The notes below the pieces were generated by a model that was given only the letters and a program-made list of their open reading frames with translations, searched no databases and was not told the DNA's origin. This document shows, one piece after another, positions 2,951 to 63,802 of a stretch of 64,000 nucleotides of DNA. This DNA comes from an uncultured Bacilli bacterium. Its GTDB lineage: Bacteria > Bacillota_I > Bacilli_A > RF39 > UBA660. Location of the stretch: NCBI GenBank assembly GCA_947630575.1, contig CANRIB010000001.1:6085-70084 (forward strand), read 5' to 3'. The translations under genes and the position numbers were made by a program. Within the stretch, counting starts at the first letter, position 1, and each line of letters starts with the position of its first letter.

Positions 2951-4384
2951 ATGATTGATAATAAGTCAATTATAAAGAAGGGAAGATTAATGAAAGTAGA
3001 GAGGTTAAGTAAAGGAAAAAGTAAGAGAATAATATTAGCTATAACAATAATAGTATTAGCAATAGGAATAATATATATAACAAATAGCAAAGCAAAATAT
3101 CAAGTAACCAAAAGTGTGCAAATAGTTAATGGTAATGTATCATATAGTCCATATGATTTTAAAATAATGGCTATGTATAAAAATGATGGAGGAGAAGATG
3201 CTCCCATAACAGAAATACCTGAAAATGGATATATGATAGACGAAACGAGGAGTTATTGTTTAAGAAATAATGAACAAATAAAGGGATTATTAAAAACAAT
3301 AAATGGCATTCACATCATATCTAAATTACATAGTAATGATAAATGTTATTTATGGTTTAATAAATCATTTACCGCTGAGGAACGAGTAACAGCTTTAGGC
3401 AAAACAACACAAACTGGCCAAATAAGTTTTGCAGAGTCAGATAAATCAGAACATAAAGATAGTAGTGACAATTCAATCATGTATAGTGGAACAGATAATG
3501 ATGGAATAACATATTACTTTAGAGGAGTAGTAAATGATAATTGGGTAAGATATGGAACTACAAGTGATAATAAAAGTATATGGTGGAGAATCGTTCGAAT
3601 AAATGGAGATGGCACAATAAGAATGATATATGCTGGAACAACAGATTTAAATTCAAATAATCCACCAGGAACAACAGGAACAGATACTCAAATAACAGTT
3701 GATGGAGAAAATACATTTCTTTATTCAAATTATGGATATGGAGATAATAAATATGTAGGCTATCAATATGCAGATAATAATGTACATGGAAAAGGAATAG
3801 ATAGCTATGCAGCAGATAGAGCAAATGAGTGGTTTAAAACAAATTTATTGGAAGAATGGAATAATGGCAATGGCAGAATAGATAATAATGCAGGATTTTG
3901 TGCAGATAGAACATCATATACAGATAATACAGGGACTTCCGAAGGAGGAGGAACCGGAACGACAACAACATATTATGCTGCTTATATAAGATTTCAAAAA
4001 GGGGGAAATTGGCAAAATCCGCAAAAACCAATATTCAAATGTACAAATACTAGTGATTTATTTACATATACAGGAGCAATAAATGGAACAAGGAGTTTAA
4101 CATATCCAGTAGGATTAATAACAGCAGATGAAGTAGTATATGCCGGAGGATTTGGAGGAAAAGATAATTATTCGTATTATTTATTTATAGGCAATGACTA
4201 TTGGACCATGTCTCCGTATTATTTTCGTGGTGCCTATGTTTACGTGTTCTATGTAAATCACAATGGCCAGCTCATTGGTAACCAAGTGAACTACAAGTAT
4301 GGTGTTCGCCCAGTAATAAATTTGAAGGCTGATACCCAATTTACAGGAAATGGAAAATCAGGAAGTCCATTTGTAGTACAATAA
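2951..4384 (+). CDS. Membrane-anchored surface protein, paralog T1, with C-terminal variable tail (alternative start ATG 2990)
   Basis: N-terminal TM segment. Central block YYFRG..NNWV..G....IWWRIVRINGDGTIRMIYAG is shared with the three paralogs. C-terminus reads GLITADEV.YAGG ... YWTMSP-[variable]-GVRPVINLKAD. Confidence 0.85.
   Translation: MIDNKSIIKKGRLMKVERLSKGKSKRIILAITIIVLAIGIIYITNSKAKYQVTKSVQIVNGNVSYSPYDFKIMAMYKNDGGEDAPITEIPENGYMIDETRSYCLRNNEQIKGLLKTINGIHIISKLHSNDKCYLWFNKSFTAEERVTALGKTTQTGQISFAESDKSEHKDSSDNSIMYSGTDNDGITYYFRGVVNDNWVRYGTTSDNKSIWWRIVRINGDGTIRMIYAGTTDLNSNNPPGTTGTDTQITVDGENTFLYSNYGYGDNKYVGYQYADNNVHGKGIDSYAADRANEWFKTNLLEEWNNGNGRIDNNAGFCADRTSYTDNTGTSEGGGTGTTTTYYAAYIRFQKGGNWQNPQKPIFKCTNTSDLFTYTGAINGTRSLTYPVGLITADEVVYAGGFGGKDNYSYYLFIGNDYWTMSPYYFRGAYVYVFYVNHNGQLIGNQVNYKYGVRPVINLKADTQFTGNGKSGSPFVVQ
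4208..4312 (+). other. Variable region VR1 (DGR-like) at the 3' end of T1
   Basis: ATGTCTCCG ... GGTGTTCGCCCA. A GC-rich island homologous to the cassettes. Encodes YYFRGAYVYVFYVNHNGQLIGNQVNYKY. Confidence 0.6.
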
Positions 4385-15097: not shown

Positions 15098-17086
15098 ATG
15101 TTAAGTAAGAAAAGAACAGTAATTATTGTAGAAATAATAATGGTAATACTTGCTATATCAATATTTGGAACTTTTGCTTTTTTATCGACAAGTGGTAAAC
15201 AAGAATTGGCCAATACTTTTACAGCAGGTTGTTTAAGTATAACCATAGAAGAAGAGGGAAGAGCAATTGATTTAGAAAATAGATATCCAGTAACAGATAT
15301 AGAAGGATTAGAACAAGAGGGATATACTTTTAAAATAAAGAATAATTGTAGTAATGATACAAATTATCAAATAAATTTAGAATCATTAAGTGATCCAACA
15401 GCAGATACAACATTAAAAGCCGATTATGTAAGAGTATCCCTTTCAAGTGATACAATGGATAATTTAATAACAACATTAAAAGAAAATGATGTAGCAACAT
15501 ATCATTCAGAAAATGCTTATGTATCTTATAATCTTTATAGTGGAATATTAAAAGGAAGTGCAAGTAAATCATTTACTTTAAAAGAATGGGTAGAATATAA
15601 TACAACCAAAGAAGAAGGAGCAAGTAAAGAATATAAATCACAGATAAATGTTGTAAGTGATACAAGAGTAGAAGTAACCCCAACACCAGAAGTAAAGTTT
15701 ACTTATAGTGATAAAAAATATACAGGAGTATTAACAGAAGAAGCATCAAATGTTAAATATTGTATGACAACAGATAATAAATGTGATGCAAATAAAGATA
15801 TAGAAGTAAGCAATAAAGAAATAACAATAGAGGCAGAAGAAAATGATAATAAACAAATGATATGTACTGAAATAGAAAATAAAACATATTGTAGTAATCC
15901 TGAATTAATAGAAAAAGTAAAACTATGTCCAGAAGGTTGGGATGCTTGTGAAACAATATTAGCCAATAGTGAAATAAAAGGACCAGTTGGAACAATAACA
16001 GGGCCGAGTTGTAATGGAGCAGCAGGAGACTCATCGTGTTATAGCAGTGATACTAAAAAGAATAATATGGGACAGAATGGAGTTTATGATACAGTAGATG
16101 ATTATGGTAAGACATATGTGTTTCGGGGTTTTGTTCAAAATAACTGGTTAAAGTTTGGCAAAGAAAATGGACAAGATATATGGTGGAGAATCATCCGAAT
16201 AAATGGTAATGGAACAATAAGATTAATATATGCTGGAAAGGGTAGTGTTGCTCCAAGTACTAAGACTGCGGATACTCAAATTGGTACTAGTACTTATAAT
16301 ACAAATTATAATGATAATAAATATGTAGGATTTATGTTTGGAACAGCATCAAATGGTAGTGCAAGTAGTGAAGGAACAGCAGGTACTACAGATGGAGCAA
16401 GAAACGGAACCAAGCCAGCCCATTTAAACAAATATGATAGTACTATAAAGGATAAATTAGATGCTTGGTGGGTAACAACAAATTTAGGGGATACTGACCA
16501 AGTAAAACATATAGATATAGAAACAGGATTTTGTAATGATAGAGAACCAGTAAAGTCTGCACATGGTAGTTATGGAACTACTACATACGGAAAAACTCAA
16601 GCAGGATATGCTCCGGCAGATAGAGTATGGCAAAGTGGAAGTACAAGTTATGATTCAACACAAGAACCAACATTAAAATGTGGCGATGATACATCACGTC
16701 AATATGATTTATTTACAGGTACTGATGCAAAAGGAGTTATGGTTGATGGAAAAACAATAGCAGGAAATAATGAATTAACCAATCCAGTAGGCTTAATAAC
16801 AATGGATGAAGTAATATATGCTGGAGGATTCGCAGGTGCAAATAACAATAATTATTGGTTATATACAGGTCAAGATTATTGGACAATGTCTCCGCGTGGC
16901 TTTGGTGACTACTGTGCTTACGTGTTCTATGTGGATTCGTATGGCTACCTCCACTACGACCGCGTGAACGACGCGTTGGGTGTGCGCCCAGTAATAAATC
17001 TGGAAGCTGATACAGTAATTGATACATTAAAGGGAGTAGATTTGGCAAATGGAGGAACTACAGATAATCCATACATAGTCAAATGA
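15098..17086 (+). CDS. Secreted/surface protein, paralog T2, with SipW-type signal peptide and C-terminal variable tail
   Basis: The N-terminus K-K-R...FGTFAFLSTSG...NTFTAG resembles the TasA/camelysin-class signal. The C-terminal roughly 330 aa are near-identical to T4 except for the variable tail. Confidence 0.9.
   Translation: MLSKKRTVIIVEIIMVILAISIFGTFAFLSTSGKQELANTFTAGCLSITIEEEGRAIDLENRYPVTDIEGLEQEGYTFKIKNNCSNDTNYQINLESLSDPTADTTLKADYVRVSLSSDTMDNLITTLKENDVATYHSENAYVSYNLYSGILKGSASKSFTLKEWVEYNTTKEEGASKEYKSQINVVSDTRVEVTPTPEVKFTYSDKKYTGVLTEEASNVKYCMTTDNKCDANKDIEVSNKEITIEAEENDNKQMICTEIENKTYCSNPELIEKVKLCPEGWDACETILANSEIKGPVGTITGPSCNGAAGDSSCYSSDTKKNNMGQNGVYDTVDDYGKTYVFRGFVQNNWLKFGKENGQDIWWRIIRINGNGTIRLIYAGKGSVAPSTKTADTQIGTSTYNTNYNDNKYVGFMFGTASNGSASSEGTAGTTDGARNGTKPAHLNKYDSTIKDKLDAWWVTTNLGDTDQVKHIDIETGFCNDREPVKSAHGSYGTTTYGKTQAGYAPADRVWQSGSTSYDSTQEPTLKCGDDTSRQYDLFTGTDAKGVMVDGKTIAGNNELTNPVGLITMDEVIYAGGFAGANNNNYWLYTGQDYWTMSPRGFGDYCAYVFYVDSYGYLHYDRVNDALGVRPVINLEADTVIDTLKGVDLANGGTTDNPYIVK
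16886..16990 (+). other. Variable region VR2 (DGR-like)
   Basis: ATGTCTCCG ... GGTGTGCGCCCA. Encodes RGFGDYCAYVFYVDSYGYLHYDRVNDAL. The flanks are near-identical to those of VR4. Confidence 0.7.
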
Positions 17087-17140
17087 CGAAGTATGGATTA
17101 GAATACACTTTTCAAGGAGTGTAGCGAGTTTAATTTGAAT

Positions 17141-33732: not shown

Positions 33733-36099
33733 ATGAAATTTAAAATAACACCTAAAGATTTTTTGATTTTTTGTTTGTATTGTGTTTTATTATTGTATTT
33801 ATGTGCAATAGCAGTGCTTAATTTTTCTTCTTTTTTGAATGATGGAAAGTTTTATGGATTGTTACCATTTAAAGCTTTTACAGGAGATTATATTGTTTTA
33901 ACTTTGTTTATGTTTTTTATTTCTTTAGTTATTATTTTTACAAGTGTTTCTTCATATGTGTTTAATAGAGAAAAGGGGAAAGGATTAGGTATAAAATTAG
34001 GGGAAAAAACAGAAAGTGGTTATGCTAGATGGAGTACAGAAAAAGAAATTAAAACTGATGTAGGAATGGCAAAAGTTGATCCTAAAGCAGAAACTGTTAA
34101 TGCAGCGGGTATTCCTTTAATTAATAATGGAAAAGAAATTTGGGTTGATAATGGAGAATATCATAATTTAGTTATAGGTTCTACGGGTTCAGGTAAAACT
34201 CAGACTGTTGTTAAGCCAATGGTTAATTTACTTGCTAAAAAGGGTGAATCAATGATTATTACAGACCCTAAAGGTGAAATATATAAATATGCGGCAACCG
34301 CGTTAAAAGAAAGAGGATATAAAATTATTGTGCTTAATTTTAGAGAGCCTAATCATGGAAATGCTTGGAATCCTCTTACCCTTCCTTATCGTTATTTTAA
34401 AGAAGGAAATACAGATAAATCAACAGAGTTATTAGATGACGTAGCTTTAAATATTTTATATGATCAATCTAAAAAAGGGGGAGATTCAGAGTTTTGGGAG
34501 AAGAGTGCAGCAGATTATTTTTCAGGTTTAGCTTTAGGTTTATTTTATGATGCAAAAGAAAAAGAAGTTAATTTAAATAGTATTAATTATATGAGTACGA
34601 TTGGAGAAGAAAGATATGCAACTTCAACATATATTAAAGAATATTTTAATATGAAAGGACAAGATTCTAGTCCATATATATTTGCATCAAATACAATTAA
34701 TGCACCAAATGAAACTAGAGGAGGTATTTTATCTACTTTTAGACAAAAGATTAGACTTTTTTCTTCACGAGAAAGTTTAAGTGAAATGCTTGCCTATAGT
34801 GATTTTGATATGGCAAGTATAGGTAAAGAAAAAACAGCAGTATTTATGATTATTCATGATGAAAAGAAAACTTATCATGCTTTAATGACAATATTTATTA
34901 AACAATGTTATGAAACATTGATAGATGTGGCTCAAGAAAATGGAGGGAAACTTCCTTTTAGAACTAATTTTATCTTAGATGAGTTTGCTAATATGCCCCC
35001 ACTTAAAGATGTTGATTCAATGGTAAGTGCAGCGCGTTCAAGAGATATTAGATTTACTTTTATTATTCAAAACTTTGCCCAGTTAAATGATGTTTATGGA
35101 AAAGAAGTAGGAGAAATTATAAAAGGTAACTGTGGTAATTTAGTTTATTTGATATCTACAGAACTTGCAGCATTAGAAGAGATTTCAAAAATGTGTGGGG
35201 AAGTTAAATCTAAAGAAAAAGATAAGACAGTTTCAACACCTTTAGTAACTGTATCAGATTTACAGAAATTAAAATTATTTGAAGCAATTATTATTCGTTT
35301 GAGAAAAAATCCTTTTAGAACAAAGTTAAAACCAGATTTTGAAATGAATTGGGGGATGAATAGAGAAGAAGCTCCATATCCAGAAAGAGAAATTAAGAAA
35401 ATTGAATTATTTGATGTTAAAAATTATGTAACTGAAGAACGTCGTAAACAAATGATGAATAATTTAGAAAATAAAGATATGGATAATCCTTTTGCTAATC
35501 CATTTACTAATCCGTTTGGGCCAAGTAGTTCTTCAACATCATTTGGGGGAATGGGAAGTGTATCACCAATTGGTTCTAATCCTTTTAGTGGTGCTCCAAG
35601 TTCTATTCCAAATTCGGGAGCTTCACCATTTAGTCATAATCCAATGTTTGATAAGCCAATGAGTAGTTTATCAGATGCCGATATAGATGCAATGATGAAA
35701 GATATTGATAGAAGACTTAAAGAACTTGATGAAGAAGAAGCTAGAGAAAATGCTAAATTGGAAGAAAAGAAAAATAATTCCGATAATTTAGTAACTAATC
35801 CATTACAAAGTAGGGAAGAAAATAAAGAGGATACTTTAGAACAAAAATTTATTACAGAGAATCCTATTAAAGAACAACCAATTAATGAAGATAAAAAAAT
35901 AGAAGAAGTTAATGATAGTTCTTTGAAGCAAGAAGTTAAACCAAGTATTTTAGAACAAGATAATAAAATAGATACTCAACCTATAAACCAAGAAGGAAAT
36001 CAAGATAAACCAAAAATAAATGTGGATGCTGATAGTATCATTGTTAATGAAAATGTAGTTACTGATGATGAGTTCTTTGATGATTTCTTTAATGAATAA
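33733..36099 (+). CDS. VirD4/TraG-family type IV coupling protein-like ATPase with low-complexity C-terminal tail
   Basis: Two N-terminal TM helices, Walker A GSTGSGKT, TDPKGE, and Walker B FILDEFANMP. C-terminal NPF/Ser/Pro-rich and acidic tail. Confidence 0.8.
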   Translation: MKFKITPKDFLIFCLYCVLLLYLCAIAVLNFSSFLNDGKFYGLLPFKAFTGDYIVLTLFMFFISLVIIFTSVSSYVFNREKGKGLGIKLGEKTESGYARWSTEKEIKTDVGMAKVDPKAETVNAAGIPLINNGKEIWVDNGEYHNLVIGSTGSGKTQTVVKPMVNLLAKKGESMIITDPKGEIYKYAATALKERGYKIIVLNFREPNHGNAWNPLTLPYRYFKEGNTDKSTELLDDVALNILYDQSKKGGDSEFWEKSAADYFSGLALGLFYDAKEKEVNLNSINYMSTIGEERYATSTYIKEYFNMKGQDSSPYIFASNTINAPNETRGGILSTFRQKIRLFSSRESLSEMLAYSDFDMASIGKEKTAVFMIIHDEKKTYHALMTIFIKQCYETLIDVAQENGGKLPFRTNFILDEFANMPPLKDVDSMVSAARSRDIRFTFIIQNFAQLNDVYGKEVGEIIKGNCGNLVYLISTELAALEEISKMCGEVKSKEKDKTVSTPLVTVSDLQKLKLFEAIIIRLRKNPFRTKLKPDFEMNWGMNREEAPYPEREIKKIELFDVKNYVTEERRKQMMNNLENKDMDNPFANPFTNPFGPSSSSTSFGGMGSVSPIGSNPFSGAPSSIPNSGASPFSHNPMFDKPMSSLSDADIDAMMKDIDRRLKELDEEEARENAKLEEKKNNSDNLVTNPLQSREENKEDTLEQKFITENPIKEQPINEDKKIEEVNDSSLKQEVKPSILEQDNKIDTQPINQEGNQDKPKINVDADSIIVNENVVTDDEFFDDFFNE

Positions 36100-36975: not shown

Positions 36976-38415
36976 ATGAAAAGGATAATTTTAGTAATAG
37001 TAGGAATACTAGGTGTTTTTGGTGTAGTTTTATTGTTTGGAAGAGAAGAGAATAAAAGTGTTTATTTGACAAATAAAGAATTAAAAGAAAATAATTATAT
37101 AGCGGTTATGATAGAACAAGAAGATGGAAATTATCAGGAACAAGATAATATACCACAAACTGGGTATGCACTAAATGAAAGCAAAAGTACATGTAGTAAT
37201 GGAGCAAAACCAACATGGGTAGATAATAGATTAAAATTAAGTAATTTAACAAGTGACAATACAAGTTGTTTTTTGTATTTTGATAAAGGATTAGCAACAA
37301 AATTGGTTGATAGTTTAGGACTGACGACAAAAAAAGGACAAGATGGATTTACAGACATGGATACAGAAGAACATACAGATGAAAATGAGAAATCAATATT
37401 ATATAGTGATGAAGATGATTTAGGAACAACATATTATTTTAGAGGAAAAGTAAAAGACAATTGGGTAAAATTTGGCAAAGAAAATGGTCAAGATATATGG
37501 TGGAGAATCATTCGAATCAATGGCAATGGTTCAATAAGAATGATATATACAGGAACGGGAACAACTGCACCAACAACAGATGGATATTTAAATAATAATA
37601 CAACAAAAAGTCAGTTAAATAGTGGAAGTACAACAACTTTTAAATATAATGAATACTATAATGATAATAAATATGTAGGATATATGTATGGGACTCAGAA
37701 AACAGGTAGTGCTGGTAGTGAAACTACACCAACGACTAGTTATGCCCAAGCTCATGCAAATAATTATGATAGTGATATAAAAAAACAACTAGATACTTGG
37801 TATAGTACTAATTTAAAAAATGAATATGGACAATATATAGACCCAGATGCAGGATTTTGTAATGATAGAAAAACAGCAACAATGAGTAGAAGTGGGTATG
37901 GAACATTAGGATATGGAAAAAATGCAACGGCATATGCAGCAGGAGATAGATTACTAGATACAAGTTGGAATGCTAATACAAAACATACACCAACATTCAA
38001 GTGTAGTCAAACAGAAGATACATTCACACTTCCAGGAGCAAAAAAACCAGATGGAAGTTATTATGGAAATCATAAATTAAGAGCTAATAATGGGTCAGGT
38101 GATAATAGTCCAATAGGATTGATAACAATAGATGAGGCTGTATTTGCTGGAGGGTATTATTATAGATCAAGTAATCAATCTGACAATAAACAATTTTACT
38201 TATATACAGGCCAGAATTATTGGATAATGTCTCCGTCTTACTTTGACGGCAGCAATGCTAGCGTGTTCTATGTGAGTTACGATGGCCACCTCGGCGGCTA
38301 CAACTACGTGTGCAGCACGAATGGTGTGCGCCCAGTAATAAATCTGAAGGCTGATACAAAATTATCAGGAGATGGAACACACACTAATCCATATGTAGTA
38401 GAAGGAGCTAATTAA
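36976..38415 (+). CDS. Membrane-anchored surface protein, paralog T3, with C-terminal variable tail
   Basis: N-terminal TM segment, the shared central block (YYFRGKVKDNWVKFGKENGQDIWWRIIRINGNGSIRMIYTG), and C-terminal YWIMSP-[variable]-GVRPVINLKAD. Confidence 0.9.
   Translation: MKRIILVIVGILGVFGVVLLFGREENKSVYLTNKELKENNYIAVMIEQEDGNYQEQDNIPQTGYALNESKSTCSNGAKPTWVDNRLKLSNLTSDNTSCFLYFDKGLATKLVDSLGLTTKKGQDGFTDMDTEEHTDENEKSILYSDEDDLGTTYYFRGKVKDNWVKFGKENGQDIWWRIIRINGNGSIRMIYTGTGTTAPTTDGYLNNNTTKSQLNSGSTTTFKYNEYYNDNKYVGYMYGTQKTGSAGSETTPTTSYAQAHANNYDSDIKKQLDTWYSTNLKNEYGQYIDPDAGFCNDRKTATMSRSGYGTLGYGKNATAYAAGDRLLDTSWNANTKHTPTFKCSQTEDTFTLPGAKKPDGSYYGNHKLRANNGSGDNSPIGLITIDEAVFAGGYYYRSSNQSDNKQFYLYTGQNYWIMSPSYFDGSNASVFYVSYDGHLGGYNYVCSTNGVRPVINLKADTKLSGDGTHTNPYVVEGAN
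38227..38334 (+). other. Variable region VR3 (DGR-like)
   Basis: ATGTCTCCG ... GGTGTGCGCCCA. Encodes SYFDGSNASVFYVSYDGHLGGYNYVCSTN. Best local match is cassette D. Confidence 0.7.
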
Positions 38416-38416
38416 T

Positions 38417-40432
38417 ATGAAAGATAAGAATAAAAGATTATATATATTAGTATCTATTCTATTAATAGGAGTAGGATTGACATTTGCATATTTTGTAGGA
38501 AAAACTATTTTTAAGGGAACAGGAGCAACAACAGAGGGAAGAACGGCAACCGTAAATGGTTCCACATTAGATATAAGTGGTAATATAGAGTTTGGTGATA
38601 AAGATATATATCCAGGACATCAAACATTATCCAAAGTAATAGCAACTGCAACAGGTAATAATGAACTTATCGCGTATAACTTAACATGGATAGGAACAAA
38701 TAATTTAAATACTAATTTAAAATATAAAGTATATGTATCAGAAGAAGAAAAAGAAATAAGTTTAACTTGTGAAAAGAAAAAGAAAGTAGTAAATGGAGCC
38801 CAACAATTAAATGAGGTATGTATAATAAATGGAGAATTAGGAGAACCAATAAATGAAGGAGAGATACCATCAAAACCAAAAGAAGAACAAACAATAAAGA
38901 TAACTAATACAGAATTTATAACATCAAAGAAAACAGGAACAATAAAATATTATTATATCATAGTAGAATATCCAGATAATGGAGATCAAAGTATAGATAT
39001 AGGAGAAGGATTTGAAGGAAAAGTATATGGAGAGATAAGTAATACAAAAGCCGATATAAATATAATAAGTGTAAATGTAGAGGGAGAAGATGGGAAATAT
39101 ACAAAACAAAGTGAAATACCAAAACAAGATAGTAATTTAACACTAAATACAAGTGATAGTCATTGTACAAATGATGCAACATTAGAATGGGATAATAGTG
39201 ATAGGAGTTTAATAGTAAATAATCTAACACAAAGTGGAACAGATTGTGAATTATATTTTTATGAGCCGACACCAGAAAAGACATTAAAAAAATTAGGAAT
39301 ATCAGAATCCGATGGAGTTATAACAGATATTACAGGTCCAAGTTGTAGTGGAAGTACTTCTTCGTCATGTTATAGTGGTGACTCTAGTCATAAAAATATG
39401 GCTCAAAATGGAATATATGATACAGTGGATGATTATGGAAAGAGCTATGTATATCGCGGTTTTGTTCAAAATAACTGGTTAAAGTTTGGCAAAGAAAATG
39501 GACAAGATATATGGTGGCGAATCATCCGAATAAATGGCAATGGAACAATAAGATTAATATATGCTGGAAAGGGTAGTACTGCTCCAAGTACTACGACTGC
39601 GGATACTCAAATTGGTACTAGTGCTTATAATACAAATTATAATGATAATAAATATGTAGGATTTATGTTTGGAACAGCATCAAATGGTAGTGCAAGTAGT
39701 GAAGGAACAGCAGGTACTACAGATGGAGCAAGAAACGGAACCAAGCCAGCCCATTTAAACAAATATGATAGTACTATAAAGGATAAATTAGATGCTTGGT
39801 GGGTAACAACAAATTTAGGGGATACTGACCAAGTAAAACATATAGATATAGAAACAGGATTTTGTAATGATAGAGAACCAGTAAAGTCTGCACATGGTAG
39901 TTATGGAACTACTACATACGGAAAAACTCAAGCAGGATATGCTCCGGCAGATAGAGTATGGCAAAGTGGAAGTACAAGTTATGATTCAACACAAGAACCA
40001 ACATTAAAATGTGGCGATGATACATCACGTCAATATGATTTATTTACAGGTACTGATGCAAAAGGAGTTATGGTTGATGGAAAAACAATAGCAGGAAATC
40101 ATGCATTAACCAATCCAGTAGGCTTAATAACAATGGATGAAGTAATTTATGCTGGAGGATTCGCAGGTGCAAATAACAATAATTATTGGTTATATACAGG
40201 TCAATATTATTGGACAATGTCTCCGTCTTGCTTTTATAACAGCGGGTCTAGTCAGTATGCTCGGGTGTTCATTGTGACTACGGATGGCAACCTCAACGAC
40301 CCGAACGTGAACAGCTCGAGCATCGGTGTGCGCCCAGTAATAAATCTGAAGGCTGATACAGTAATTGATACATTAAGGGGAGGAGATTTGGCAAATGGAG
40401 GAACTACAGATAATCCATACATAGTCAAATGA
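38417..40432 (+). CDS. Secreted/surface protein, paralog T4, with SipW-type signal peptide and C-terminal variable tail
   Basis: Starts 1 nt after the T3 stop. N-terminus ...GVGLTFAYFVGKT. C-terminal two-thirds are near-identical to T2 outside the variable tail. Confidence 0.9.
   Translation: MKDKNKRLYILVSILLIGVGLTFAYFVGKTIFKGTGATTEGRTATVNGSTLDISGNIEFGDKDIYPGHQTLSKVIATATGNNELIAYNLTWIGTNNLNTNLKYKVYVSEEEKEISLTCEKKKKVVNGAQQLNEVCIINGELGEPINEGEIPSKPKEEQTIKITNTEFITSKKTGTIKYYYIIVEYPDNGDQSIDIGEGFEGKVYGEISNTKADINIISVNVEGEDGKYTKQSEIPKQDSNLTLNTSDSHCTNDATLEWDNSDRSLIVNNLTQSGTDCELYFYEPTPEKTLKKLGISESDGVITDITGPSCSGSTSSSCYSGDSSHKNMAQNGIYDTVDDYGKSYVYRGFVQNNWLKFGKENGQDIWWRIIRINGNGTIRLIYAGKGSTAPSTTTADTQIGTSAYNTNYNDNKYVGFMFGTASNGSASSEGTAGTTDGARNGTKPAHLNKYDSTIKDKLDAWWVTTNLGDTDQVKHIDIETGFCNDREPVKSAHGSYGTTTYGKTQAGYAPADRVWQSGSTSYDSTQEPTLKCGDDTSRQYDLFTGTDAKGVMVDGKTIAGNHALTNPVGLITMDEVIYAGGFAGANNNNYWLYTGQYYWTMSPSCFYNSGSSQYARVFIVTTDGNLNDPNVNSSSIGVRPVINLKADTVIDTLRGGDLANGGTTDNPYIVK
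40217..40336 (+). other. Variable region VR4 (DGR-like, long form)
   Basis: ATGTCTCCG ... GGTGTGCGCCCA. Encodes SCFYNSGSSQYARVFIVTTDGNLNDPNVNSSSI. The 5' part matches cassette B and the 3' part matches cassette A. Confidence 0.75.
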
Positions 40433-40684
40433 CGAAGTATGGATTAGTAAACACTTTTCAAGGAGTGTAGCGTGGTGCTATCAATTTGATTCTCAAACCT
40501 AGATAGCATTTGAATTAAGCAAATAAATGAGGTTTAAGTTTTCTTTTTAAATTTTGGTGGGAATAACAATGTAGCAGTTATTCTCTTTTTTTGTAAATAA
40601 AATTATTAGTACTTGCATATTTTTGCTATATGTGATATATTTTAATTGTACTAGTGCATGTAATACAATAAAGGAGGAGATTAA

Positions 40685-44092: not shown

Positions 44093-45420
44093 TATAATAT
44101 GGGCAATTTATTTGTCAAAATTGATATTTATAGTTAGTAGTTATAAATATCTTTTTTTTAAATTAATATTTTAATAATGAGTCATTAAGAATGACATCAT
44201 CAGGTTTAATATAATAACAATTAAGTTTTTTTAAAATATATTCGTCACATAGAAATAACATTGCTTCATAAGGAGACTTACCATTTAAAGAATCGCGACA
44301 TAAACTGTTAATATTATTCATAAATAAATCACAATCTTTTTGGGTAATATTTTTAAAAGAAGAACCTTTTGGTAAAATATAACGAATAAATTCATGGTTT
44401 TTCTCTATGCCTCCTTTTTGCCAAGAAGCAGAAGGATCACAAAAGAAAAGATGAGTAACATATTCACCAGTTTCATGAATATACTCAATATTATTGACAT
44501 CAAAAAATTCATGACCATTGTCAGTGAGAATAATTGGAAATAGTTTTTTATAATCTTCTTCAGGTATAAAAGTTTGAAGAATGCTAAATATTCTAGTTAC
44601 TTCTTCAGTAGTTTGAGATTCCAATTTAAATATAAGCATAAAATTAGATTTTCTCCAAAAAAGAGTAAGAAAGCAATCTTCTTCAGTTTGTAATCCTTCA
44701 ACAGTATCCATTTCAACAATATTTAAATAAGGATTTCTAGATGTATAATCTAAGAAATCAGTATATTTTCTATTAATCAAAATTTCTCTTTCTTTTCTAG
44801 TTCTTCTATTAGGATTATTTTTTCTTTTTTTATATTTAACAATTCTAGGAAAATCCAAAGGTCCAAATTCAAATACACCATTATTAACATACTTATAAAA
44901 AGAACTTTTACTAAAATCAAGAATATCAGGATGGTTAATATATAAATGATTTATAGTTTGTCCTTTTTTTACAAGTGGATAGATAATTTCATTTATTTTA
45001 TAAATTTCATCGTAGTTTAAATTAATACCTTGTCTAGATGATTTAATTAATTCATCATATGATTTTTGAGCTTCTCTTGCGTAATAAGTCCATCTAATCT
45101 TTCTACAACCACTTCTAGATTTGCAGCCATTACAAACATAAGGAGAGTGTTCCAATCTTTCACAAGATAAATCTAAACCAGGGTGATTAATTTTATAATT
45201 ATTCCAACTAGATGGTTCAGAATATTTTTTGTTTCTATCTATTTCTCTTAAAATAGAAGAGTGACATCTATTAATTTCTTTAGCAATTTGATTGATAGAT
45301 TTATTATCATTTAATCCATCTTCAATATTTTTTCTATCTTCATAAGATAGATGACAATAATTTGCCATAGTATATAATACCTCCTTTATATGACAAATAA
45401 ATTGCTTGAGAGATATTATA
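44093..45420 (-). mobile_element. IS30-family insertion sequence (ends approximate; minimal element 44103-45405)
   Basis: The 15-bp terminal inverted repeat GCAATTTATTTGTCA (44103-44117) / TGACAAATAAATTGC (45391-45405) brackets a single transposase gene. A possible outer extension, TATAATAT, is present on both sides. Confidence 0.75.
44163..45368 (-). CDS. IS30-family transposase
   Basis: N-terminal HTH (SINQIAKEINRCHSSILREIDRN) and a C-terminal DDE-type integrase core (TDNGHEF ...). Confidence 0.85.
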   Translation of the reverse strand: MANYCHLSYEDRKNIEDGLNDNKSINQIAKEINRCHSSILREIDRNKKYSEPSSWNNYKINHPGLDLSCERLEHSPYVCNGCKSRSGCRKIRWTYYAREAQKSYDELIKSSRQGINLNYDEIYKINEIIYPLVKKGQTINHLYINHPDILDFSKSSFYKYVNNGVFEFGPLDFPRIVKYKKRKNNPNRRTRKEREILINRKYTDFLDYTSRNPYLNIVEMDTVEGLQTEEDCFLTLFWRKSNFMLIFKLESQTTEEVTRIFSILQTFIPEEDYKKLFPIILTDNGHEFFDVNNIEYIHETGEYVTHLFFCDPSASWQKGGIEKNHEFIRYILPKGSSFKNITQKDCDLFMNNINSLCRDSLNGKSPYEAMLFLCDEYILKKLNCYYIKPDDVILNDSLLKY

Positions 45421-45559: not shown

Positions 45560-45988
45560 GTGAATGGAATGAATAATAAAAGTGGTTTTACTTTAGTGGA
45601 ATTGTTAAGTGTTATAGTTATTTTATCAGTAGTTGTTTTAATTGCAACAAATGCGGTAGTGCCAATGATGAATGATGCTAGAAGACAAGTTTTAGCAACA
45701 GAAGCAAATAAGTTTATGATGGCTGCTCAAAATTTATATGTTAAAGATAATGCGAGTGGAACAAAATGTTATTCTTATGAAGAAGTAATTAATTCAGGTT
45801 TAATTGAAAAAAATGATGAAGCTTATGCTGGTAGTTTTCTAATTGAAAGTAATGGAGAAGGAAAATATACTTATAAAATATGGCTTTCAAATGGAACTAA
45901 TGCAGTTTTAGGAAAAAGTCCTGATGTGACAAGTAAAGATGTTATAGATTCTTCTGATGATGCATCACAGAGTTGTGAAGTAAATTAA
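45560..45988 (+). CDS. Type IV pilin/pseudopilin-like protein (prepilin N-terminal methylation motif; likely start ATG 45569)
   Basis: KSGFTLVELLSVIVILSVVVLIA is the class III signal (G/FTLVE). Confidence 0.8.
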   Translation: MNGMNNKSGFTLVELLSVIVILSVVVLIATNAVVPMMNDARRQVLATEANKFMMAAQNLYVKDNASGTKCYSYEEVINSGLIEKNDEAYAGSFLIESNGEGKYTYKIWLSNGTNAVLGKSPDVTSKDVIDSSDDASQSCEVN

Positions 45989-46946: not shown

Positions 46947-47149
46947 GGTTAATCTGTTTAAGTGTATTGGTATTAGTCTTTGTATAACGCTGACTCTGAT
47001 GGTTATGCTCGCGTGTTCATTGTGAATTCGACTGGCAACCTCAACACCAACAACGTGAACAACACGTGGGGTGTGCGCCCAATATCCTTTTTAAAACTCA
47101 TATATCTGGTTAAGGCTTGGTATAGTAGAACTAGGATACAAGATTAATC
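46947..47149 (+). ncRNA. Template-repeat-like cassette RNA C
   Basis: TGATATAATTATAAT precedes GGTTAATCT. The template segment 46976-47081 starts GTCTTTG instead of GTCTCCG and ends GGTGTGCGCCCA. Conserved tail ends AGATTAATC. Confidence 0.65.
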
Positions 47150-47174
47150 ATTGGTTTTAGGACTTAAAAAAAAT

Positions 47175-47220
47175 AATGCTGATATTATTTATCTTGAATA
47201 AGTAATTATTACAGCATTTT
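47175..47220 (+). terminator. Hairpin terminator after cassette C
   Basis: AATGCTG ... CAGCATT stem plus TTTT. Confidence 0.55.
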
Positions 47221-47279
47221 TATTTTGGAAGTAATACTTCATTGACCAAAAAATGGCTATTTTGTTATATTGACCCTAA

Positions 47280-48203
47280 ATGGAGGTTTTTAAGATGGAA
47301 CAGTATAATGAGGTAGAACATTTAATAAAAAAATTAGAAATAAATAAGAGAGCTAGAGTATTACAAGATAATAGAGAAACATTAGATACTTATTGGAATA
47401 TAGGAAGACTAATTGTAGAAGCTCAAGGAGGCAAAGAAAGAGCTAAATATGGAGATAATTTAATTAAAGAGTGGAGTAAAAAACTAATTGTTTATGGAAC
47501 AAATTACAAAATGACAAGCCTTAAATATTTTAGATTATTTTATTTAACGTTTAGAAATGGTCAGCCGTTGGCTGACCAATTAAGTTGGAGTCATTACCAA
47601 GAATTGTTACCAATCAAAGATGAAAATAAAAGAAATTATTATATAAATTTATGTATAACTAATAGTTTGTCAAAAAGAAAATTGAGAGAGGAAATAAAAA
47701 ATAAAAGTTATGAAAGATTATTAGAAAAAAGAGAACATATAGAAATAATAAATAATAAAGAAGAAATATATAATATAAAAGAACATATAAAAAATCCCAT
47801 AATAATAAAATTATCAAAAGAAGAACAAATAAAAAAAGAAAAAGAACTACAATTAATTATTTTATCTAAATTAAAAGATTTTTTTATGGAATTAGGATAT
47901 GGTTATGCATATATAGAAAATGAGTATAAAATAAAAATAAATAATAAAATATATAGAATAGATATATTATTATTTAATTATAATCTTAATGCTTTTGTAG
48001 TAGTAGAATTAAAGATGCGAGAATTAAAAAAAGAAGATAAAGCTCAAATAGAGTTTTATATGGAATATATAGATAATAACTTAAAAAGAAGTTTTCATAA
48101 TAAAACAATAGGAATAATAATAACAAAAGAGCAAGATAAATTTATCTTATCATTTGTTAGTCAAAATAATATAATACCTATTACTTATAAAGTTAAAAGT
48201 TAA
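47280..48203 (+). CDS. DUF1016/YhcG-like PD-(D/E)XK nuclease family protein
   Basis: N-terminal ...TYWNIGRLIVEAQGG..RAKYGDNLIKEWSKKL pattern and a C-terminal RIDILLFNY..NAFVVVELK nuclease core. Confidence 0.65.
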   Translation: MEVFKMEQYNEVEHLIKKLEINKRARVLQDNRETLDTYWNIGRLIVEAQGGKERAKYGDNLIKEWSKKLIVYGTNYKMTSLKYFRLFYLTFRNGQPLADQLSWSHYQELLPIKDENKRNYYINLCITNSLSKRKLREEIKNKSYERLLEKREHIEIINNKEEIYNIKEHIKNPIIIKLSKEEQIKKEKELQLIILSKLKDFFMELGYGYAYIENEYKIKINNKIYRIDILLFNYNLNAFVVVELKMRELKKEDKAQIEFYMEYIDNNLKRSFHNKTIGIIITKEQDKFILSFVSQNNIIPITYKVKS

Positions 48204-63238: not shown

Positions 63239-63432
63239 GGTTAATCTATTATCTCGTGACATGTCTCCGTATAACTTTAACGGCAGCAATGCTAACGTGT
63301 TCTATGTGAATTCGAATGGCAACCTCGGCAACAACAACGTGAACAACACGAATGGTGTGCGCCCAATATCCTTGAATACCTCATATATCTGGTTAAGGCT
63401 TGGTATAGTAGAACTAGGATACAAGATTAATC
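63239..63432 (+). ncRNA. Template-repeat-like cassette RNA D
   Basis: -10 boxes (TATATAATTATAAT) precede GGTTAATCT. In the template segment 63261-63365, 13 of 35 codons are AAC/AAT in the target frame. Conserved tail ends AGATTAATC. Confidence 0.7.
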
Positions 63433-63455
63433 TTTAGTAGTTTACTAAAATAAAT

Positions 63456-63505
63456 GATGCTGATATTATTTATCTTGAATAAGTAATTATTACAGCATCT
63501 TTTTT
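63456..63505 (+). terminator. Hairpin terminator after cassette D
   Basis: GATGCTG ... CAGCATC stem plus TTTTTT. Confidence 0.6.
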
Positions 63506-63534: not shown

Positions 63535-63729
63535 GGTTAATCTATTTTGGTTAGTTAGTCTCCGCGTAACTTTGATGGCAGCAATGCTAACGTGTTCTAT
63601 GTGTCTTCGGATGGCTACCTCAACAACAACACCGTGAACAACACGAGTAATGGTGTGCGCCCAATATCCTAAAGAAACTCATATACTTGATTAAGGTTTA
63701 GTATAGTAGGCTAGGATACAAGATTAATC
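63535..63729 (+). ncRNA. Template-repeat-like cassette RNA E
   Basis: GTGATATAATTATAAT precedes GGTTAATCT. Template segment is 63558-63663. Conserved tail ends AGATTAATC. Confidence 0.7.
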
Positions 63730-63754
63730 ATTAGTTTAAAAACTTAAAAAATAT

Positions 63755-63802
63755 AGTATTGATATTATATGTCTTAGTATATATAATTATAACAATATTT
63801 TT
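63755..63802 (+). terminator. Hairpin terminator after cassette E
   Basis: AGTATTG ... CAATATT stem (one G-U pair) plus TTTTT. Confidence 0.5.

Follow-up and report, generated by a model that had tools for sequence, protein, structure and literature searches.

A variable region related to two template cassettes by adenine-only differences in an uncultured Bacilli bacterium

The common picture of a diversity-generating retroelement (DGR) is that of a single template and a single enzyme acting on one or a few targets. In a 64,000-nt stretch of DNA from an uncultured Bacilli bacterium (assembly GCA_947630575.1, contig CANRIB010000001.1, positions 6,085 to 70,084 of the forward strand; hereafter the window, which is the portion of the genome visible to us and to which all results given as "in the window" refer), we found a variable region (VR), VR4, at the 3' end of a target gene, T4, that matches two different template repeats (TRs). 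These reside in cassettes A and B, template RNA genes located 38 kb from VR4. The 3' part of VR4 departs from A, and its 5' part from B, at template adenines only, and VR4 unites an indel of each. We lean towards two donors for VR4 in total, acting either sequentially or through template switching.

Two template cassettes matched by one variable region

The features needed to follow the comparison are these:

38417-40432, + strand: target gene T4, 671 aa, with an N-terminal membrane anchor and a C-terminal domain paralogous to T2
40219-40336, + strand: VR4, the variable region at the 3' end of T4
40219-40273, + strand: 5' segment of VR4 attributed to cassette B, with the B-specific 12-nt insertion
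40274-40336, + strand: 3' segment of VR4 attributed to cassette A, with the A-specific extra codon (GAACATC); 7 A-only and 0 non-A differences
1770-2022, + strand: cassette A, a TR-RNA gene made up of a stem arm (1770-1778), a non-homologous leader (1779-1815), a short TR (1816-1883), a structured 3' element (1884-1952), and a terminator hairpin with T-run (to 2022)
2077-2358, + strand: cassette B, with an extended -10 TGATATAAT just upstream, a full-length TR (2107-2220) with 12 nt inserted and, in its GC anchor, 1 nt deleted, a 3' element (to 2289), and a terminator (to 2358)
15098-17086: target gene T2, a recent paralogue of T4, which carries VR2

In an ungapped comparison, VR4 40274-40336 differs from cassette A 1821-1883 at 7 positions (40278, 40283, 40298, 40301, 40314, 40316, and 40320), every one an adenine in the template, with 0 changes at the 40 non-A positions of these 63 nt. 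Compared in the same manner, VR4 40219-40261 differs from cassette B 2107-2149 at 4 positions (40227, 40229, 40230, and 40242), again each at a template A. Given the adenine content of the templates, differences confined to A would arise with a probability of 4.4e-4 in the 3' part and of 2.7e-3 in the 5' part. When both strands of the window were scanned for sequences from which a query may differ at A only, the 5' 43 nt of VR4 returned B only and the 3' 63 nt returned A only. A sequence-only reading of this DNA had arrived at the same differences in both parts, including the same codon changes relative to A, by hand alignment. This alignment proved to be exact: the substitutions are not spread over the template bases but fall, 11 out of 11, on template adenines, and adenine-specific templating of the DGR type is borne out separately in each half of VR4.

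The indels point the same way, as VR4 combines a 12-nt insertion as in B with a 3-nt insertion as in A. Where A and B overlap, at least 6 non-A diagnostic sites and the indel side with A, which rules B out as the source of the 3' half of VR4, and A itself has no counterpart of the 5' half; VR4 is thus chimeric relative to A and B, as had been claimed. The same claim held further that the middle of VR4 resembles cassette C. Within the window C does give the best fit to 40256-40279, with 1 non-A difference vs 2 for the B of the window. However, a comparison with the closest relative found, metagenome-assembled genome (MAG) Lapin-028__bin40 (L038; ~87-90% identical, hereafter the sister species), speaks against C as a donor. 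The sister species carries cassettes A and B at the same place, after the same gene, and its cassette B reads AACAGCGGG and GTGTTCATTGTG, as VR4 does, with GCGCCCA intact; VR4 40219-40273 (55 nt) differs from it by 5 A-type changes and 1 non-A change. As this B carries the VR4-like versions of both sequences, a third donor is not needed, and cassette C was rejected in that role, B of the ancestral type covering 40219-40273 with one non-A difference. The proposed mosaic templating of VR4 is hence reduced to a two-donor form, which recurs in a second species (see below), and what falls away is the contribution of C.

The B of the window has mutated since the ancestral type, with T at 2159, A at 2130, and the 1-nt deletion in the anchor. 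The deletion also occurs in independent assemblies of the same strain and is therefore real. The resulting anchor without one C at 2210-2220 (GGTGTGCGCCA) is found as well in TRs of other genomes (L079, L031, and L095), so that this form is tolerated or recurrent and not a sequencing error. Between the two species, the 5' half of B shows 2/57 differences and its 3' half, which is not represented in VR4, 7/59. In both species the 3' halves of B share features unlike A and VR4 (AATTCG; TAT without the extra codon), which implies that the 3' half of VR4 has not come from B since the species split.

A natural control that delimits the rewritten tract is provided by the pair T2 and T4. Upstream of the VR the two genes differ at 10/768 nt (98.7% identical) and downstream at 4/123 nt, but within 40226-40324 about 48 of 99 nt differ, including indels of 12 nt and 3 nt. 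By this comparison the diversified tract of VR4 spans 40226-40324, bounded on the 5' side by GTCTCCG and on the 3' side by the anchor GGTGTGCGCCCA (40325-40336). Near-identical flanks together with TR-specific indels in the VRs imply that, once a recent duplication had occurred, different TRs rewrote the VRs wholesale. The flanks, at 98.7% identity, also make this duplication far younger than the split from the sister species (~87-90% identity), and the contrast between T2 and T4 implies that at least one of the two VRs was rewritten wholesale long after A and B took their present forms.

Cassette anatomy and distribution in relatives

Exactly five cassettes occur in the window, alignable over ~280 nt. 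Besides A and B these are:

46947-47221, + strand: cassette C, a TR-RNA gene, unnecessary for VR4
63239-63505, + strand: cassette D, a TR-RNA gene, cognate of VR3
63535-63802, + strand: cassette E, a TR-RNA gene without a clean cognate VR in the window

They share one order of parts. An extended -10-like TGATATAAT, weaker in cassette A, which directly adjoins the stop codon of the gene before it, is followed by GGTTAATCT, which does not vary, and by a leader that does. Then come the TR, AATATCC, and a ~60-nt conserved element with TAGGATACAAGATTAATC at its end, and finally an AT-rich hairpin and a T-run. Complementarity of GGTTAATCT to AGATTAATC gives the RNA a predicted closing stem of 9 bp. 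One structure emerged both from RNAalifold, run on 90 cassettes, and from the minimum free energy (MFE) fold of cassette A, namely the closing stem, a UAUCC/GGAUA helix, a covarying hairpin, and a terminator hairpin, the last coming from the MFE fold of cassette A alone as the 90-cassette alignment ends before the terminator. The two invariant helices are uninformative by themselves because their motifs were selection criteria for cassettes. In the hairpin, covariation among the 90 cassettes was found at pairs 228:245 (UA 59, CG 18, UG 9, AU 3), 233:240 (GC 67, AU 22), and 234:239 (UG 56, UA 18, CG 16). Rfam 15 yielded no family for the cassette RNA, the lone match at gathering score in the window being a tRNA. 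Read in the frame of the VR, each TR contains 8-13 AAY codons and 0-1 A at codon position 3, which is the classic design of a DGR template, with mutagenesis avoiding stop codons.

Cassette A deviates from this scheme by its length. It has no VR homology upstream of 1816, the A of the sister species is truncated likewise, and L029, a syntenic copy that is more distant, is short as well. Relative to the sister species the TR of A differs at 1/68 nt vs 16/106 for leader plus 3' element. Being truncated and yet conserved in its TR, A represents a conserved half-length template, able to rewrite only the 3' half of a VR. The 12-nt insertion of B is likewise distinctive, its site being occupied in 3 of 90 aligned cassettes, which are B, its sister-species orthologue, and one unrelated long variant.

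Templates and targets in the window are linked by the 10-mer GGTGTGCGCC, present in 8 exact copies plus 1 with one mismatch, with 0.03 expected. Four of these anchor sites lie at open reading frame (ORF) ends and are followed by CAGTAATAAA (VR1-VR4); five are intergenic and followed by CAATATCC (cassettes A-E). Going by these sequences, a shared GC-rich 3' element with differing downstream sequences would correspond to the IMH vs IMH* (initiation of mutagenic homing) pattern of DGRs. Besides the anchor, framework islands are common to all TRs and VRs (GTGTTC / TGTG / ATGGC / CCTC / GTGAA). In two cassettes (L033:3763-3982 and L055:1122-1335) the GC anchor is broken or replaced by an inserted inverted repeat (e.g., GGTGACCTGTCAAGCGCCCAACAGGCAATATCC). 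The remaining variable regions and their genes in the window are:

2951-4384: target gene T1, which carries VR1
4210-4312, + strand: VR1, in T1, with a mutated anchor (GGTGTTCGCCCA)
16888-16990, + strand: VR2, in T2
36976-38415: target gene T3, which carries VR3
38229-38334, + strand: VR3, in T3

VR3 differs from cassette D by 12-13 A-type and 2 non-A changes and one codon indel. VR1 shows 13-29 non-A differences to every TR, though A and B adjoin its gene upstream; it has probably decayed and is no longer rewritten, and cassettes A and B, next to the gene of VR1, serve VR4, 36 kb away, instead.

In a collection of species-representative genomes, an 18-mer of the 3' element found matches in 95 eight-kb tiles, nearly all from uncultured gut Bacilli, "Mycoplasma sp. 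CAG:776", and Tenericutes-type MAGs. We counted more than 150 TR-type anchors and ~15 true VRs in them. Relatives possess at least 10-20 dispersed cassettes per genome, some in tandem, and the per-genome maximum of 20 is itself a lower bound; templates thus exceed targets in relatives as they do in the window (5 cassettes vs 4 VRs). One 8-kb tile, L074:900-4900 (MGBC164908 contig 16), contains about a dozen tandem cassettes with a single adjoining VR, and their 3' tails read ATACCTTT / ATACTCTT, variants of the usual ATATCC.

A second two-donor VR was detected in Lapin-001__bin38 (locus L020), in which the first 71 nt correspond to the TR of L047 (13 A-type, 0 non-A differences) and the last 52 nt to the TR of L042 (4 A-type, 0 non-A), neither TR fitting alone. 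Two more VRs resemble three-segment mosaics, one of them the L002 VR in CANQHE. Clean one-to-one pairs also exist, for instance the L072 VR and the L066 TR (9 A-type, 1 non-A). Taken over 17 VRs of the family, zero-mismatch coverage by TRs of the same genome reached 0.51 when A was treated as mutable vs 0.22-0.23 for C, G, or T.

Searches of phage DNA and protein sequences gave no match, and a scan of viral contigs gave 2 matches, which we took as chance without inspection. A metagenome scan with a VR4/B-specific pattern carrying N at adenines returned at least 120 chance matches, none of them with family context, the pattern being too degenerate.

Possible routes to the mosaic

The course that we favour, and to which we give about an even chance, is that VR4 is a nested mosaic, first written from B and then overwritten at its 3' end by A. 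Each cassette would be transcribed separately into a ~250-nt RNA comprising the closing stem, an AAY-rich TR, the structured 3' element, and an intrinsic terminator. Copying of the TR, with random misincorporation opposite adenines, would fall to a reverse transcriptase (RT) encoded elsewhere, and the complementary DNA (cDNA) would replace the VR from the shared 3' anchor GGTGTGCGCCCA to a 5' junction at any short identity. Because anchor and framework islands are common to all, any VR could be rewritten by more than one TR. In a first step, B would have rewritten the whole of VR4, leaving the 12-nt insertion and the 5' adenine substitutions; in a second step, the short A would have overwritten the 3' 63 nt, leaving the extra codon and 7 adenine substitutions, with the B/A crossover presumably in the shared TTGTGA island. 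In mosaics nested from the 3' anchor in this way, the 5' end is predicted to preserve the oldest donor and the 3' end to show the most recent one. Partial integration of cDNA that begins at the common GC-rich 3' anchor, one of the origins that the sequence-only reading had envisaged, agrees with the second two-donor VR and with the Bordetella DGR, where the 3' integration site has a fixed place within the GC stretch, no more than 8 bp of identity are required for a 5' junction, and the VR receives insertions present in the TR (PMC3240598).

Several points weigh against this course. Only 64 kb of the genome are visible and further cassettes are probable elsewhere; likewise, VR1 and VR2 have no cognate TR in the window, which implies that cognates located elsewhere are common. 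The lone non-A change, C to G at 40264, is unexplained. With T at 2159 and its 1-nt anchor deletion, the B of the window is perhaps a poor donor now, and 9 substitutions underlie the contrast in conservation inside B. VR4 does not differ between independent assemblies of this strain from other samples, and ongoing variation was not observed. Finally, a YxDD/FxDD scan of all six frames of the window revealed no RT ORF, nor was an RT found by motif scan and clustering of 603 neighbouring ORFs in 658 kb, comprising 95 tiles around cassettes in ~28 related genomes.

With respect to strain variation, contigs were located through genes neighbouring T4, and all belong to the same strain, with either an identical VR4 or an end inside T3. 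In fact, every metagenome contig of the strain that reaches T3 (36976-38415) ends within this gene (L103-L108), which suggests that assemblies break where target sequences are repeated or heterogeneous. In a contig from another sample, L101:728-890 (ENA ERZ27249118; ~40200-40360 of the window), the T4 locus, which precedes the ABC transporter, has the exact VR2 sequence flanked by variants of the T2 type. Either the paralogues T2 and T4 have really exchanged sequence there or their repeat has led to a chimeric assembly, and the contig is uninformative on variation of VR4.

As to the missing enzyme, the 2.7-2.8 kb beyond either window end were also free of an RT. Its absence near cassettes implies that the RT is not cassette-linked, and the family-wide adenine specificity suggests that one exists. 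No recurrent small helical (Avd-like) protein appeared among the cassette-adjacent ORF clusters, a dedicated Avd profile search not having been run. With the exception of the RT, which was not seen, a DGR-type system is well supported.

The alternative that survives best is that VR4 was written by one TR, a single full-length cognate outside the window with a B-like 5' and an A-like 3' half. That VR4 matches A and B would then reflect only the modular relatedness of TR paralogues, which do visibly share segments; cassettes are moreover dispersed, with the at least 10-20 copies per genome seen in relatives, and VR1, VR2, and the TRs of C and E are without partners in the window. Nevertheless, the 12-nt insertion is rare (3/90 aligned cassettes), no cassette that we saw from the sister species was a B/A recombinant, the conservation of the short cassette A calls for some function, and the same two-donor pattern occurs in another species. 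We consider a single cognate unlikely, albeit to be taken seriously.

The second donor might alternatively have joined the first during synthesis, the RT beginning on the A RNA and switching to the B RNA at the GTGTTC/TTGTG island, so that one mosaic cDNA was integrated in a single event. Such a switch fits the sequence data equally well as the sequential model, and the homology of A stops exactly at the island where it would have occurred. Against it, sequential partial conversion requires no new activity, and the three-segment pattern of the L002 VR (CANQHE) fits nested events equally well. We know of no report of natural template switching between DGR RNAs, and regard this route as quite improbable.

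VR4 could also be a relic, written long ago by an ancestral full-length B with an A-like 3' half, of which A is a partial duplicate; the 3' half of B would since have diverged and rewriting of VR4 ended. In line with this, A adjoins B and resembles a copy of a 3' fragment, the 3' half of B evolves faster, and VR4 is identical in independent assemblies. However, the 3' half of B was already unlike A before the sister-species split, the T2/T4 duplication is far younger than that split, and an old copy sits poorly with 40 non-A positions free of change in the 3' 63 nt of VR4. This account is, in our view, highly unlikely. RecA-type recombination or gene conversion among cassettes or paralogous VRs, with the adenine bias coincidental or of separate origin, could draw on the VR2 sequence at the T4 locus in L101 (exchange or assembly chimera), but plain conversion copies a TR unchanged, yet 11/11 differences lie at template adenines and the family-wide base test is specific for A, so that we hold it for scarcely credible.

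Targets, neighbouring genes, and known systems

The target proteins are weakly tied to C-type lectins. The Pfam domain DUF6273, described as C-type lectin-like in phage DGR targets (PMC10743442), is found just over the cut-off in T1 and T3 and under it in T2, with no match in T4. An AlphaFold2 model of the C-terminus of T4 attained a pLDDT (predicted local distance difference test score) of 86.6 with a deeper alignment and of 30 with a 4-sequence alignment. Foldseek searches of PDB and BFVD with the model gave no significant match, the best relevant of the non-significant ones being a phage DUF6273 protein (E 0.53), with C-type lectins at E about 3-4; searching PDB by sequence returned no entry. 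A 17-nt inverted repeat (TAATCCATACATAGTCA / TGACGAAGTATGGATTA) spans the stop codons of T4 (40411-40446) and T2 (17065-17100), ~75 nt 3' of the VR anchor. By analogy, it might be the counterpart of the hairpin/cruciform in DGR homing, or just a terminator.

Among the neighbouring genes, a TraG/VirD4-type coupling protein (33733-36099) lies directly upstream of T3 and T4, and between VR4 and cassette C are located a prepilin-type (N_methyl) protein (45560-45988) and a 401-aa ORF (44163-45368, - strand). One further gene stands between cassettes A/B and T1:

2357-2818, - strand: HTH_3/XRE regulator-like gene, divergent

A gene of the HTH_XRE type is divergently placed between cassette(s) and target in 16 related loci and may locally control how targets or templates are expressed. 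Other genes that recur next to cassettes encode DUF6273-type targets (37 loci) and pilin-like proteins, the latter also found repeatedly near targets in relatives. In 11 loci of several genomes, including 47280-48203 of the window as well as L020, L027, L060, L067, L071, and L080, genes for YhcG/DUF1016 PDDEXK nucleases occur on the cassette strand; 12 of 15 such ORFs lie within about 150-600 nt of a cassette and some are flanked on both sides. These nuclease genes could be co-mobilised with cassettes or provide a cofactor, possibly a target-nicking activity.

How does this system relate to those already described? With the Bordetella BPP-1 DGR (mtd/avd/brt) it shares adenine-only TR-to-VR differences, an AAY-rich TR, a VR at the 3' end of a gene for a ligand-binding protein (putatively so here), a GC-rich 3' anchor common to TR and VR, directly after which the two diverge, and a structured non-coding RNA 3' of the TR; 3'-anchored integration with a homology-dependent 5' junction, as in that element (PMC3240598), would give the nested pattern. 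In contrast, BPP-1 has a single TR between avd and brt, co-transcribed with them, whereas here 64 kb contain five TRs, each with a promoter-like -10, closing stem, and terminator, with no adjacent RT or Avd found, one TR being of conserved half length and one VR being marked by two TRs. Chromosomal DGRs of Treponema denticola and Legionella (Wu et al. 2018, PMC5758913) likewise act in trans over long distance on paralogous surface-protein genes. There, however, one TR serves many VRs (PMC5758913), whereas here TRs exceed VRs, and it is the TRs and not the targets that are dispersed and amplified. Several TRs for one system are also known from published DGRs with more than one TR, but those are RT-adjacent, have merely been counted, and were partly discarded as ambiguous, and autonomous TR-RNA genes, arrays, or mosaic VRs were not described for them.

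On the side of recombination-based systems, pilE/pilS of Neisseria and vlsE of Borrelia are similar in that many silent donors with framework islands give segmental mosaics in few surface-protein expression sites. Those donors are, however, promoterless DNA and recombine without base-specific errors, whereas the donors described here are structured RNA genes with their own -10, and transfer is accompanied by adenine-specific mutagenesis. Measured against both classes, TR/VR differences sit on TR adenines as in DGRs (VR4/A 7/7, VR4/B 4/4, also VR3/D and L072/L066), but no RT adjoins a TR in the stretches scanned, and instead of one TR per element there are five TRs for four VRs, VR4 matching two. 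The promoterless, faithfully copied cassettes of pilS/vls are not what we found either, given the -10, the terminator, the covarying RNA, and the adenine-specific changes. The system is best classed as a DGR variant. In the literature searched, we found no description of a whole system that combines TR-RNA genes which are autonomous and dispersed, an excess of templates over targets, a conserved half-length template, and a lack of linkage to an RT. To our knowledge, every DGR survey pipeline begins at the RT and looks nearby. Such RT-centred pipelines (PMC8144416) would miss cassettes without RT linkage.

Beyond VR4, we tentatively put forward a combinatorial DGR, whose chances we place somewhat below even, in which a genome-wide library of autonomous TR-RNA genes, numbering tens in each genome and partly arranged in arrays, would be served by an unlinked RT acting in trans and VRs would be nested multi-template mosaics. 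Any anchor-sharing TR could rewrite any VR from the 3' end inward, half-length templates like A would refresh only the 3' half, and the YhcG/DUF1016 nuclease would be a possible cofactor. If true, this would amount to a hybrid of DGR hypermutation and cassette-type antigenic variation, in which the reachable sequence space is multiplied, as scaffold variants and indels would be exchanged besides adenine codons. TR RNAs would then be recognised purely in trans via a small conserved 3' structure, a property useful for multiplexed DGR engineering, and present DGR censuses would undercount both templates and targets. The system moreover offers a natural setting in which to study how the 5' junction of cDNA integration is chosen.

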